DNA of 64,000 nt from Octopus vulgaris (Eukaryota). Both the position numbers and the translations under genes were made by a program. Below, piece after piece: positions 736 to 60,923 of this stretch (position 1 is its first letter; every line of letters starts with the position of its first letter). The DNA lies in assembly GCA_951406725.2 (NCBI GenBank), contig OX597814.1:91202001-91266000 (forward strand), in the 5' to 3' direction. The notes beneath the pieces are model-generated. The model ran no database searches. It had not been told where the DNA came from and saw nothing but the letters and a program-made list of their open reading frames with translations.

Positions 736-1071
736 ATATTGACGTCACTGACGCTAGAAAATCGGAAGTAAATATTTTTAAAAACATTCAAAGATGTGAA
801 TGTAATATAAAAACCAATGTCTTTTATTTTTAATTTAAAAAAAAATCAAAGTTAGAGCCTAACATGTCTCCGAGTTCAAATTATTCACGCATCCCAGTTG
901 TGGAAGTAATTGGTGAAGCTGTTTTCGTACGAAAAGTGAATACACACACATCTCTATTTTATATATTCGATGAGATTGTGATAATACAGTTCTATATTTA
1001 AGAGATGATGAATTATGTACATTATTTACATTGTTATTTGACAGATATTTGTCCTCATTTAGTTTGTTGTT

Positions 1072-1117
1072 AACACAACGTTTCGGCTGATATACCCTCC
1101 AGCCTTCATCAGGTGTT
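1072..1117 (-). ncRNA. Minimal type I hammerhead motif of the Penelope-LTR type
   Basis: Minus strand reads AACAC-CTGATGA-A-GGCTG-GAGGGTATAT-CAGCC-GAAAC-GTT-GTGTT. This gives a 5-bp stem I, an intact core, a 5-bp stem II and a loopless palindromic stem III (AACGTT) that would need a dimeric fold. Confidence 0.75.
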
Positions 1118-1170
1118 TTGGGGAAATTTTGAACCTGGGTTCTCGTTCCTAAGGTATTTTTATGTAGTTG

Positions 1171-30621: not shown

Positions 30622-30938
30622 CATGAACTCTGGTAACTCGAGTCAAGAGATTTGCCGGCATACTGTATACTGACCTCCTAAAATTCAAATAGCAGTCTAA
30701 TCACACCACTCCGTCTTAACAAGGAATGATAAATAACACAATATATTCTAAATATCTTTAAAGAAAAAATGGTTTGAACATGAACTCTGGTAACTTGAGT
30801 CAAGAGATTTGCCGGCATACTGTATACTGACCTCCTAAAATTCAAATAGCAGTCTAATCACACCACTCCATCTTAACAAGGAATGATAAATAACACAATA
30901 TATTCTAAATATCTTTAAAGAAAAAAACGTTTGAACAT
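30622..30938 (+). repeat. Tandem duplication, unit ~157 bp x2
   Basis: catgaactctggtaact...gtttgaa starts at 30622 and again at 30779, with few substitutions. Confidence 0.9.
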
Positions 30939-50914: not shown

Positions 50915-53200
50915 GAGTATTTACTATTCAAAGCCGGTCGTGTCTCGTCTATCCAGACTGACTCTTGCTATCTGTCGTAGCGATTCGTCGTCCGGGAGTC
51001 TAGACAGGAATTGTATGCTAATTTGGTTCAGCACACCAACATGTTTTTTTTTTGGCATTATTGTACAGTATTGAGGTTAGTCTTTGATTCCTATATTCCT
51101 TCCAACGTACATTTATACTCTCGGCCTAATTTGTCGCCATTTTTACCTATGTATGCAGTCTTCCGGATTTTACAATCATCATTCATGCAGGTTATTCGTT
51201 AAACCACATTTCTGGTTTTGCAGTTGACATCGGGGATATATTTGCACACTACACAGTCCTCCTCTACACACGTGAGTTTTCTGAAGGGTTATGTTTTACA
51301 TATTATTAACATGATGGATCACCCTGGTTTTTCCATGAGTTTTATGTTCAACTTGTTATCCTTCAGGATTTTTCTAAATCTGCGTGCTAGTTCCTCGTGT
51401 GATGTGGCTTCTACAAACACCACCCCTTGGAACTTGTTAGCATTGCACCACGTGTTCTTTTTTATTTGTTTTATCATAAGTTTTCCGTATTTTATTCCAC
51501 TGCTTACTACGGTAATTAGGTTGTGCTCCATCGACATCCTTATTCACAATCTCTTTCAACTTCTTGCAAGACCCCTGTATACTTGGATTCTATCTTTCTG
51601 ATTGTATCCCGAAAATTGCATGCGATGCATGAAGTCTTGTGTGTGTTTCTGTTTCTCCCAAGGTTTGCACAGGGGGGATATATTTTTCATTATTGTAAGT
51701 CGGCTATTGACATACTAACTTTCACATAGCGTGATAGAGCCGAACTCCTATGTATCACATATTTCGAGGACACAGGTTTCATATAGTGTGAATGGAGAAG
51801 TTTGACCTTGTTATTAATAGTCTCTAGCCAAAGCTCTATGTCAAGGACCGGGAGTTTCTTGTTTGGGTGCCTTGTTGGGTAACTTATTGTTACCCTGATG
51901 CTTTGGTGTACGGAATTAGCGATGCGCTGGGTGCTTTCCATCATGATCCACTCGTTAACTTCAGTTTGACTGTTTGATGGTATCCTGACTATGATACCGA
52001 TGTCAACCACATATCTCCTGTATGTCCGATTGCTACCGAGTGTTCCTTAAGAGCTTCTTTCAGTTTCGTGTCCTACCAGGTAATGAAGAGGGCCGCCACG
52101 TATCCAGTTACACTGACATCGATGGCTGCCCCCTGGACTTGCATATATATAGCTTCTCATTGAATTTAACTATGTGGATCTGTTGGGCGGTTTTTAGACT
52201 TGTGTCCGCTGCACTTGCAATCCTTTTCCGTTTCTGGACGTTATCAACGAGTCGTGGGTACGTGCATTCCATCCACATCAGCGCTTCTTGGTGTTTTTCG
52301 TAGCTGCTGATGTGATTATTGGTGGCCTAACTTGTTCCGACCTGGTGGGGCAGAATCTACTAAGGTAGTGGTAATCTAATTATTCACTGTCGTAAACGAG
52401 TTCAGGAAGAGGCCCAGTTCCCTCGTGTTCACCTCACGGAAAACTACTTCGTTTTCGGAGATAATTTCCACACATCTTTCTGCGCCAAATTCAATGTCGA
52501 TAGATGGGTAAAGTGATACCACATCCATGCTACCTACCATACAATTTCACAGGTCGTGGGAGCGGTTACATTCATTAAGCCTGCTAAGGTGGTGCTCTGT
52601 GCTTTCACAAACATCAGGAGACAACTCAGTGAGTGATCTTAACACTTGCGAGAGGATGCATGAACAATAAGGGTCTGCGATAGGTTTATGGTCTTTTGTA
52701 AACCCATAGAGTGTAGGAAAGTTATAGCTTGATGTTATGAAGTTCTGTGCTATGCGCTTCTTAGGTTGGAGTAAGTTACACCACATTCCCATGTGTGTGT
52801 TCAGAACTTTATTCTTTCATATTCCTGCGGTGTAACTTCTCTCATGTTTTCGATGTGCTGTTGCACCGAATGGACCAAGTTTTGCAGGCTGTCTACCGAC
52901 ACTCTGCCGGATTTGTCTGTGGGTAAGCATACTATTTCGTTGTTCCAAACTCTATATTTTAGTTTTTCTGTGCCCATCGCAGCCACTTTACAGAGTTGAT
53001 GGGTCTCAACCTCGTTCTGTTTTGGGATAGTCCTACCTTGTTTCTGTGTTATAGTTTTCATGAGTCTGCTTCTAGCCAAAGAGATCTTGGCTTCTGTCTT
53101 ATCTTCTGTGTAAGGTGAGATGCTCGGTCTTTTGTTGAACGGTAAATCTGTTGGATAGATTCATCTCATGTCATAGAATTTGTCGATCGGGTTATAAAAG
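50915..53200 (-). mobile_element. Penelope-like retroelement (RT + GIY-YIG endonuclease), pseudogenised
   Basis: TDLPFNKR; IVCLPTDKSGRV; FPTLYGFTKDHKP; VGSMDVVSLYPSID; RRYVVDI (YVDD mutated); KLPVLDIELW; HSHYMKPVSS; CVEEDCVVC..NCKTRNVV*RITC...AYIG (Cys cluster plus GIY-YIG); PALNSK end. Many stops and frameshifts. Confidence 0.9.
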
Positions 53201-57910: not shown

Positions 57911-58992
57911 CAATACCTGATCTAACATGCTCTAATGATATTAGCAGTGAAACAATCCTGACTATTCTAACGACATTACCAGAATATGTAGCAACGCTAG
58001 CCGTCGTTGTAGCACGATGAAATCAGCGATAGCTTTGCCAGCTTATACTTTGACTCTGTTAATGGTGAAACACTTCTGATAACATCCACAACGAATCTAA
58101 ATGATACTATGAATATAAATGATGTGTATGTCACTATTAATAATCGTGCTAACTGTATGAAATACCATCATTATAATGGCAGTAACATTTCTAATAATAA
58201 CCATCCTGAACACTCTTAGGGAAGCCCGCCGAATACGAGTAATTCTATTGGGTCTAACTATAAAAGCATCAAGCTGCATTCTTCGAACAACACTGAAAGT
58301 ATTTATGTCCATAAATCTCTTAAATTATGTAACTGTAAACTACAAATTCCTATGTCCCCTCAATAATTTATGCCTTAATAAATATATTATCTTCAGGTAT
58401 AACAACTATTCTAACCACATTTACCTCCATCGGTTCAAGTTCTTCCGAATTTTAGCAATCGTTCTTTCAGTTTTAATAAACATAATAAGAGTAAGGTTAC
58501 ATCACACGCAGAAAAAATGTTAATTAAAAGACAAATAGACTAGATTTCTAATTACCTGAAGCCTAATAAAATATGTATTACCCTACTCATACAATATGTA
58601 TTACCAAATACATATGATATGTATGGTTGTATGGGAAATACTTAAATGTTCAAGTAATATCCTTTAAAAATCTAGGGAACGTGTACTGCGCTTGAAACCC
58701 ATTTTCATACTTTCTGGTTATCTTTAACTTCATAGCTCCTATGAAGCCATATTTTTAACGTGTTCACAACTACTTGTCTCATATAAATATTATTTAAAGC
58801 AGTATGTCACATTTTCTCATTATTTTATATAAGGGTATGTATGTGTGTGAGTGTATGTGCATCTCTGTATCTGTGTATATATATGTTTGTATTTATGAAT
58901 ATATATGAACTTATGTATATATGTGTGTATGTGTGTGTGTATGCTTATATATTTATCTACATCTATATTTATCCATCTATCTACTTATCCAT

Positions 58993-59035
<43 letters not shown>

Positions 59036-60066
59036 GTGTATATGTTCACAGGTATAGACATATATCTATGCATAGGTGGATCTGTAACAGTATTTGGAAT
59101 GCGTTTACTTGTGTGTGCAGATATGCATGTCCATCATGTACATATATTCGTATGTATATATGTGCGTGCGTGTGTATGTGTGTTTGTGTGTATGAGTTTG
59201 AGTGTGAATAAGTGTGTGTCTATTGTACTTGTGTTGGACAGAAAGAGACGAAAAATTGATGACACTTTTATGGCTTCTGCTGCTTTGAAGTTCGTCGCCA
59301 TTTATCTCTCGTAACTGATACAATATCTGCTTGGTTTGATGACCTTTAATGTAAACTCGAGGCTATAGCATGTCTGTGATTCTTGTATGTTCTCAGTGCA
59401 AATATCAGCTATAGAATAATTTAGATAAGTGTATCTCAATAATATAGTCGTTTGATGTCTCTGCTTCTCACATGCATGTTCAAAACGTACCTTCCGATTT
59501 TCTTATAAATTTGAAAGTTATTTTTAAAGAGCCACTAATCTAACGTCATATTTTTAACATCTTTCCTATTTAAAGTTTTACCTGAATACGGTGAATTATA
59601 TGTCATGATGTAATCTATGAATAAATCAATAAAATTCATCTGAAACAGCTGTCATAAATTTCAATCAGCATTTGTAGTGCTATTCATATCTACGCTATAC
59701 CTAGAACCAACGATAGAGTCGAATCTACGATTTAACTTGTATTTACTACTTACATATCTACACAATCTTACCAACGCTTGACACCTTCATTGTTGTTTAC
59801 CTCACGGTGAACTCTATTTTATCGGACCTATTTCTGGCACCCCAAATGTTTACGTACCTAGGTTCTACTGAATCCTTATAGGTAGTGAAAATATTTATGT
59901 GTGTATGTTTGTGTATGTCTTTGTGTGTATGGATATATGGTGAAACATTGAAACCTGCAGTTTAAATTAATTTTCTGTATATACATTAGCGAATCGCTAA
60001 ATCATCCATTAATTTGGATGTCGAAAACACATGTAATGCTAGAGAAGCCAGCTGAAGTAAGCCAAG

Positions 60067-60132
60067 ATCGAGCGGGCTTAACTGATGAGGCATCAATTGC
60101 CGAAACTGACGTCAGTATTAAGAATTCTTGAT
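60067..60132 (+). ncRNA. Type I hammerhead ribozyme, complete canonical core with extended stem I
   Basis: Stem I CTTAA 60077-81 pairs with TTAAG 60118-22. Core CTGATGA 60082-88. Stem II GGCA-TCAAT-TGCC 60089-101. GAAA 60102-105. Stem III is the palindrome ACTGACGTCAGT 60105-116. Cleavage triplet GUA, predicted cut after 60117. Distal stem I ATCGAG 60067-72 / CTTGAT 60127-32 (one G-U) lies beyond an internal loop. Confidence 0.92.
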
Positions 60133-60445
60133 GGGCATTTTTCGGAGGATTCAGCTCCTTGTTAGTGTATATGTTTTCATTCATTTGCATTAATTACAGC
60201 ATTGAACACATTAGCTTGTATTTCTAGAAATGTAGTTGTTTCTGAACACCCTAGTCATAGTTAGTGAGAGTTATATATCTCGTATTTGGTGAAACAGTGC
60301 AAACTGCTGTTTATGTTATATATATATATATATATATATATTTATTTATTTATAATAAGAGTAGATCGTATACGAGTGGGTATATATTTGTAAAAAAGAA
60401 GTTTGAAAACGCCACTATATTAGATAAATTTTAATTTTCTTATGA

Positions 60446-60491
<46 letters not shown>

Positions 60492-60662
60492 GCGCAGGAG
60501 TGACTTTGTGTAAGAAGCTTGCTTCCCAACCACATGGATCTTGGTTCAGTCCCACTCTGTGGCACCTTGGCCAAGTGTCTTTTGCTATAGCCTCTGGCCG
60601 ACCACAGTTTGTCAGTCTATTTGGTAGACGGAAACTGAAAGAAGCCCCTTCGTATATATGCA

Positions 60663-60703
<41 letters not shown>

Positions 60704-60910
60704 TTTTTATATCTGTGTTTGTGTCCCCACCACCATCGCATGACAACAGATGTTGGTGTGTTTACGTCCCCACAACTCAGTGGTTCGGAAAAACAGACCG
60801 ATAGAAGTAGTACTGGGATTACAAAGAATAAGTCCTGGGTGGATTTGTTCGAAATAAGGCGGTGCTGTATCATAGCCGAGGTTAAATGACTGAAATAAAA
60901 AGAAACAAGA
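60492..60910 (+). mobile_element. tRNA-derived SINE with internal (TA)n
   Basis: gcgcaggagtgactttgtgtaagaagcttgcttcccaaccacatgg...ggttcagtccc (A and B boxes), a ggcaccttggccaagtgtc central domain, and a 3' gactgaaataaaagaaacaagaata tail. Confidence 0.85.
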
Positions 60911-60923
60911 ATACATATGTGTG

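Follow-up and report, generated by a model that had tools for sequence, protein, structure and literature searches.

The type I hammerhead motif in the window, by which we mean the whole stretch of 64,000 nt of Octopus vulgaris DNA analysed here, most probably lies in a decayed copy of an old, dispersed non-LTR retrozyme, a protein-less repeat of about 350 nt that was likely pasted into microsatellites by a Penelope-type enzyme by way of a predicted RNA circle. The window copy itself is most likely without function, an ordinary transposon fossil.

The hammerhead motif and the insertion around it

A sequence-only reading of the window had described a hammerhead with all core nucleotides and a GUA cleavage triplet, three paired stems and a stem I that extends past an internal loop, and each of these parts was confirmed in the sequence (Table 1). 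C3, U4, G5, A6, G8, A9, G12, A13, A14, the A15.1-U16.1 pair and H17 are all present, and the three helices are pairable, with helix I open-ended. When both strands of the window were scanned with a canonical descriptor, the motif was the sole match, and 200 dinucleotide shuffles of the window gave 0 canonical matches. The type I hammerhead motif in the window is thus real, and its cleavage site is a predicted one. The Rfam check that the earlier reading had proposed came back empty, as no family reached its gathering score over the whole window and no hammerhead model matched at E<=10 in the 801 nt of 59700-60500. A loose descriptor for minimal hammerheads found no further motif in the window; separately, a core-only pattern picked out a PLE-type minimal hammerhead near 1112 (about 1070-1120, minus strand), which belongs to a common repeat and also occurs in L219, L220 and L224.

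Table 1. Positions in the window of the parts of the hammerhead and of the insertion that carries it
Feature	Positions	Strand	Basis or remark
Type I hammerhead (stem I 5 bp, core, stem II 4 bp, helix III 4 bp)	60077..60122	+	sequence and descriptor scan
Stem I, proximal part	60077-60081/60118-60122	+	sequence
Core CUGAUGA	60082-60088	+	sequence
Stem II	60089-60092/60098-60101	+	sequence
Core GAAA	60102-60105	+	sequence
Helix III	60105-60108/60113-60116	+	sequence
GUA triplet	predicted cut after A60117	+	sequence
Stem I, distal part	60067-60072/60127-60132	+	sequence
Extended stem I with internal loop 60073-60076/60123-60126	60061..60136	+	
Loop II, 5 nt	60093..60097	+	alignment of 30 family copies
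Perfect 12-nt palindrome (helix III and its loop)	60105..60116	+	predicted to pair between two hammerheads
Whole insertion, 1.12 units of ~350-nt non-coding hammerhead repeat	59938..60330	+	blastn, all-against-all of 30 loci
5' partial unit, repeat of last 35 nt of full unit	59938..59972	+	sequence
3' end of full unit, the family's 'long' fixed end	60287..60321	+	
TG/TA-rich simple repeat, 5' side	59893..59937	.	likely target site; sequence
(TA)n microsatellite, 3' end	60317..60354	.	likely target site

The motif had also been called intact, and this did not hold. In an alignment of 30 family copies, loop II has 5 nt in the window copy and 8 nt in the family, where it forms one extra pair and a 6-nt loop, so that the window copy has suffered a 3-nt deletion; the longer form is also present in contigs of all four other organisms examined, each of which holds the family. 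Furthermore, the family pair 60066/60133 in the distal part of stem I is lost and 60070/60129 has become a G-U wobble. Internal loop I is kept, whereas loop II, on which the idea of fast cleavage had been based, is damaged. In type III motifs, changes in the loops strongly lower the cleavage rate (PMC6155905).

The motif was further said to lie outside any recognisable transposon, with neither a tandem copy nor an RT relic beside it. However, it sits inside a dispersed repeat, and the window insertion is 86.9% identical to the family majority unit over 397 columns (blastn). As to the tandem copy, the element does carry a 35-nt terminal direct repeat with a period of 349 nt, and the claim stands in so far as there is a single hammerhead. 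The last bases of the insertion overlap the (TA)n tract, which together with the TG/TA tract on the other side is likely the target site. The inverted 5' arm found at other loci is absent here, and a Pfam search of three frames over the element gave no match. A decayed Penelope-like coding relic lies about 1.1 kb upstream.

This relic (58020-58830, plus strand, ends approximate) is the decayed 3' part of a Hydra-like Penelope element and is 70% identical to a piece fused to a copy of the family at locus L146; no PLE family scored over the Pfam cut-off in its frames. Its own family gave 23 first-look candidates, two of which lie within 1.2 kb of this retrozyme. About 900 bp of other sequence separates the relic from the window element, and a common insertion of the two is a candidate only. 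Elsewhere in the window, broken frames at 51690-53160 (minus strand), which lack Pfam support, presumably hold Penelope-type RT motifs; 30622-30938 consists of two tandem 157-bp units that are 97% identical; and about 60490-60915 is a very common repeat that was matched in 59 of 121 fetched loci.

A dispersed and decayed family

A genome search with a 201-nt query gave 664 first-look candidates, and the 40 that were scored, the window itself aside, were 78-86% identical to it; other parts of the unit used as queries gave 884 and 915 first-look candidates. An exact 29-mer was found at 16 places, an 18-mer at 41 and a 16-mer at 105, with 0 for the controls. A recapture calculation, in which 5 of 35 places overlapped among 99, put the number of hammerheads at about 700 (95% range 297-2134); the window was left out of this calculation, as were five of the 18-mer places, which fell outside the range that the listing covered. 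We examined 181 distinct loci, about a quarter of the estimated copies: 166 fetched loci were reduced to 121 by dropping repeats of the same place, with eleven 10-kb stretches omitted, and 60 further loci were fetched after the pattern described below had been seen, all 60 of which held the family. The majority unit, made from 30 copies picked for likeness to the window copy, is 353 nt long with 37% GC. Median identity to it is 85% across the 181 loci and 87% for the window copy. The earlier suggestion of a young retrozyme monomer was thus right in kind and wrong in age, and the many dispersed copies undo the special reading of the motif by the very copy-number check that had been proposed for it.

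The 29-, 18- and 16-mers were also used to seek a young subfamily, and gave scattered matches and no arrays. No long tandem array of the family was found among the 181 loci, one of which reaches 2 units. Two hammerheads on the same strand occurred at 11/181 loci and were both intact at none. No locus (0/181) holds two consecutive units with complete hammerheads, which is the 'active locus' of bioRxiv 10.64898/2026.07.22.740005; this count bears on present activity and not on origin. Young arrays of a 360-bp unit at L208 (1-2709), in which 4.4 and 3.1 units that are 99% identical stand head-to-head and end in (TA)n, were rejected as relatives, having no sequence in common with this unit. Within the family, six loci (L079, L085, L095, L096, L102 and L106) form a subfamily with a GUC triplet and an extra U after A9, two changes that co-occur in 6/6 cases (P = 1.5e-7). 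At L031, L033 and L137 the unit is broken by a different common repeat, which sits at nearly the same position in these copies.

We compared the decay of the ribozyme with that of the rest of the unit in loci collected with a non-ribozyme query, from which loci already met in other searches had been dropped. The majority letter was kept at 252/293 core positions (0.86), at 573/661 stem positions and at 1007/1191 positions (0.85) of the upstream non-ribozyme part. The catalytic core and the remainder of the unit have decayed at the same pace, and the decay looks neutral. In this set 1/24 hammerheads had an intact core and stems, compared with 27/201 instances over all loci, a share that is inflated because most instances came from pattern searches favouring an intact core.

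The sequence-only reading had also offered domestication, in which an intron, a UTR or a lncRNA would carry the window copy as self-cleaving RNA in the manner of the amniote intronic hammerheads, for which the names HH9 and HH10 are used. We consider this very improbable. The strongest point for it is that 0/37 core and stem positions of the window copy are changed, compared with 45/316 (14%) elsewhere (P = 0.0034 for one copy), which counts against a dead copy and makes selection possible. This has to be discounted, however, because two to three such copies are expected among 600-900 and an intact look was the reason for choosing this one; 26 other intact instances exist among the 201. The age of the copy also speaks for it to some extent: contigs that span its 5' junction with nearly the same sequence occur in three further organisms, X5, X7 and X8, with 3/333, 3/330 and 6/763 differing letters respectively, so the insertion is older than their split. 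Yet a difference of about 1% among these organisms is too little to show conservation, and among the pieces listed none bridges the hammerhead itself in other organisms; in X10 (organism E) the family is present and none of the pieces listed spans the insertion junction. Among the sequencing runs listed as containing the sequence none was an RNA run, which has no bearing on whether the locus is expressed. Furthermore, the family occupies 181 loci where a domesticated hammerhead is expected at a single-copy locus, loop II is short, the distal part of stem I is degraded and a blocked fold is favoured (see below). A search of 71 exon-sized frames in the window and the next 20 kb for host-gene domains, a weak test given that a long intron is possible, found none; its only matches, to RT and C2H2, lay in a LINE-like stretch of L110. 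The amniote hammerheads (RECK and others; PMC6155905) resemble the window motif in being single type I motifs with an internal loop in stem I, but they are conserved across amniotes, whereas the window motif lies in a decaying repeat and matches no Rfam hammerhead model. Domestication is thus unsupported, and the window copy reads as one member of a dispersed, decaying repeat.

Insertion architecture and the probable copying enzyme

The main 3' end of the copies was the 'long' fixed end at 85/181 loci, a 'short' fixed end about 50 nt before it at 52/181 and another end at 44/181. A microsatellite followed the 3' end at 111/181 loci, compared with a background of 15% (2500/16400 random positions), and because the family ends mostly in microsatellites, target-site duplications are unreadable. 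At 57/181 loci an inverted, 5'-truncated arm was joined to the copy head-to-head; 27 of these pairs combined a long with a short end, 3 had two short ends, none had two long ends, and in 27 one or both ends were unclassed. Copies longer than 1.02 unit were found at 82/181 loci, with 14 reaching 1.5 units and a maximum of 2.53. A copy that extends past the unit start continues into the 3' part of the unit itself. Separately, the 5' starts mapped in a set of 82 loci fell evenly all around the unit. The pattern was repeated in the later 60 loci, where 21 had an inverted arm and 11 were long-plus-short pairs. We found no common coding end in 98 upstream flanks, which held microsatellites, other repeats and one segmental duplicate. 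Together, the wrap-around copies and these flanks suggest that the template was a circle of unit length or a multimer, and not the end of an ORF-bearing element. As an alternative, a tandem read-through transcript could be the source of copies longer than one unit.

This architecture matches the Penelope type of insertion as described for Penelope-like elements (PLEs). PLEs typically show partial tandems, with a 5'-truncated copy in inverted orientation and a tail at only one end (PMC8557442), and the EN+ Hydra clade described there shares all three with the octopus family, together with (TA)n targets. Experiments in vitro showed that a Penelope protein cleaves AT-rich DNA on both strands and extends each of them, and that the RT, from the anole Poseidon element, starts at two internal sites on the RNA whose spacing equals the tail (PMC11167929), in likeness to the two start points suggested here. 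The segment of about 50 nt between the two fixed ends would accordingly correspond to a Penelope-type tail, although it is longer than the 30-40 nt of PLE tails and the octopus repeat, in contrast to these elements, has no RT/endonuclease ORF.

A rather different origin would have the hammerhead as a passenger in a SINE- or satellite-like repeat moved by a LINE enzyme. The family is dispersed, short and non-coding, with variable 5' ends and simple repeats as 3' neighbours, all of which would suit such a repeat, but LINEs prime at the 3' terminus of the RNA, the very contrast drawn in PMC11167929, while both the wrap-around and the asymmetric use that inverted arms make of the two fixed ends fit Penelope-type insertion. 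Moreover, the paired changes of the GUC subfamily leave the ribozyme cleavable in principle, and we give this origin only a slim chance.

The insertion hallmarks would look the same if the repeat were the pseudo-LTR (pLTR) of an autonomous PLE, its copies being 5'-truncated ends of a full element that escaped a sample of about a quarter of the estimated copies. Canonical hammerheads are carried by pLTRs of the Hydra clade (PMC8557442), and Xenopus retrozymes are homologous to pLTRs (bioRxiv 10.64898/2026.07.22.740005). We nevertheless regard this as unlikely, since the 82 loci that wrap past the unit start and the 98 flanks that lack a common coding end both argue against it. Neither the flanks nor a tblastn of the 181 loci revealed an ORF for RT and GIY-YIG between pLTRs, and tblastn/tblastx searches with Hydra-like, Neptune-like and window-relic queries, including those started from the two fused Hydra-like pieces described below, found no autonomous partner with this unit as its pLTR. 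PLE coding sequence in the same orientation lies directly upstream at no locus except L067, and there the own pLTR of a Neptune-like element and a (TA)n tract intervene. The elements at L013, L067 and L116 carry a CX4CxxC motif, and we take them to be Neptune-like from this and from other features of such elements. Finally, 30 loci of a very young Hydra-clade Penelope family (G000, L178-L207, L111) have no sequence in common with the unit, and this family was rejected as its source. The young family often stands in inverted pairs, carries the DKT, CxCX5C and CxxC motifs and is protein-identical over 158 aa in 150/150 scored of 22114 candidates; its pLTR contains a core that resembles a hammerhead core but has C as its fourth position.

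We favour a separate retrozyme copied by a Penelope-type helper, and two loci may indicate which one. Two copies, L019 and L146, are joined head-to-head to decayed Penelope coding pieces, which start within 2 nt of the 5' end of the element, in the place that the inverted arm occupies at 57 loci. Both match a young element in the genome with DKT, CxCX5C and CxxC motifs, which are given for the Hydra clade (PMC8557442), and the L146 piece itself carries CxCX5C. The simplest reading of these joins is one event with two templates, and the helper is possibly a Hydra-clade element. However, such a join could also have arisen if some of the element had been removed by an insertion at a later time, and the link stands at 2/181 loci, to which the 60 later loci added no case (0/60). 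When other copies of the two old Hydra-like families were inspected, the unit was present in only L210/L233 (the same place as L146) of 25 for one family and in 0/29 for the other.

Other neighbouring PLE pieces were set aside. Those at L067/L116, L096/L111 and L098 are separate insertions, either bounded by ends of their own or set off by a gap. At L006 and L013 a truncated PLE piece follows directly on the 3' side; these tail-to-head joins are ambiguous, because a PLE that inserted later into the neighbouring AT-rich site would leave the same picture, and were left uncounted. L013/L115 (8712-8800) holds three consecutive repeats of the final ~30 nt that precede the short end, as would result from restarts of the RT at one site, and directly after them comes a truncated Neptune-like coding piece.

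Predicted folding and relation to known retrozymes

We folded the majority unit and the window unit as circles. The majority unit reached -114.3 kcal/mol, compared with -68.1 +/- 5.2 kcal/mol for its shuffles, 0/100 of which were as low (z -8.8), whereas the window unit has lost this fold (z -1.35). The CUGA of the core is identical in sequence to the 5' strand of helix III and can compete with it for the 3' strand as partner, and the resulting blocked fold is predicted to lie below the hammerhead fold by 4.2 kcal/mol in the window copy and 5.5 kcal/mol in the majority unit. Calculated without tertiary contacts, the active fold of the window motif lies 4.2 kcal/mol above the ensemble in RNA of 79 or 101 nt. 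In the 393-nt window copy the blocked pairing has p 0.86 and helix III p 0.10, and in the unit circle the core is blocked with p 0.998; these values come from nearest-neighbour folding, which omits the tertiary contact and is uncalibrated on known active hammerheads. Given a single hammerhead, a short loop II and no circle fold, the window copy alone is predicted to be slow or non-cleaving.

Two copies behave differently in the predictions. The 12-nt palindrome, which the sequence-only reading had passed over, would form a self-duplex of -19.3 kcal/mol, compared with -1.8 kcal/mol for its own hairpin, and a pair of copies is predicted to cofold into a double hammerhead that leaves the cores free, which is lower than two monomers by 8.1 kcal/mol (window) and 5.1 kcal/mol (majority). 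In an RNA of two units the inter-unit helix III has p 0.67. That dimeric hammerheads cleave in multimers while the monomeric circle is protected is a known idea (PMC4209133). The newt satellite 2, axolotl dimer-acting and PLE minimal hammerheads (PMC4209133, PMC6155905) likewise have a palindromic helix III and loop 3 and a predicted double hammerhead; here, in contrast, helix III has 4 bp and could form alone, and the single motif is predicted to be off through pairing between core and helix III and not through a weak helix alone.

From these folds and the architecture of the insertions, a cycle may be proposed. A transcript of two units would form the double hammerhead through the palindromic helix III, from which a unit-length RNA is predicted to be cut out and might then be ligated to a circle by the host. 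The circle would be highly self-paired, with its core blocked by pairing of CUGA with the 3' strand of helix III. A Penelope endonuclease would cut both strands of (TA)n-like DNA, the RT would start at one of two sites about 50 nt apart and run round the circle, and two cDNAs would be joined head-to-head. The steps of transcript, cleavage and circle rest on folding and on analogy to the animal retrozymes of PMC7229834. Tentatively, we extend the proposal to a Hydra-clade helper and a built-in switch, in which the two cut strands at L019 and L146 would have been extended on different templates, one on the retrozyme circle and one on the helper's mRNA, and the ribozyme would be off in the monomer or circle and on in the double hammerhead of a multimer.

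The octopus family shares most features of the metazoan non-LTR retrozymes (PMC7229834). Its non-coding unit of about 350 nt falls within 150-450 nt and close to the 350-390 nt of the mussel units, has a GC content below 50%, a type I hammerhead and no ORF, and occurs in many genomic copies that are partly in tandem (82/181 loci hold more than one unit); a self-paired circle is predicted for the majority unit and not for the window copy. In contrast to these retrozymes, which are defined by arrays, the octopus family consists mostly of dispersed, decayed copies of 0.5-1.8 units, with no long array among 181 loci, and has a unit sequence specific to the family. A ribozyme-blocking circle is predicted here, whereas most animal retrozyme circles are predicted with a free ribozyme, with the exception of some mussel circles (PMC7229834). 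Dispersed hammerhead monomers and a tie to Penelope are also found in vertebrate retrozymes, described as non-autonomous PLE derivatives by Li, Clavereau and Pollet in 2026 (bioRxiv 10.64898/2026.07.22.740005); their link to PLEs came from co-occurrence and pLTR homology, and the available part of that study sampled no mollusc. Here no pLTR homologue was found, and the link consists of the insertion structure and the two Hydra-like head-to-head fusions. Literature searches turned up no paper that treats hammerheads or retrozymes of any cephalopod, octopus included, although the supplement of PMC7229834 may list cases.

As most likely a fossil, the window locus matters little in itself, and the family is a further animal retrozyme of a known kind. 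At the genomic level, its insertions support the proposed copying of animal retrozymes by Penelope-like enzymes. With the two chimeric insertions, naming the helper clade becomes open to testing, and if the tentative extension above is true, it is these head-to-head chimeras that name the clade of the enzyme. Moreover, the predicted fold, off in the circle and on in the multimer, may provide an answer to how retrozyme circles escape cutting themselves, a question left open in the available text of PMC7229834.
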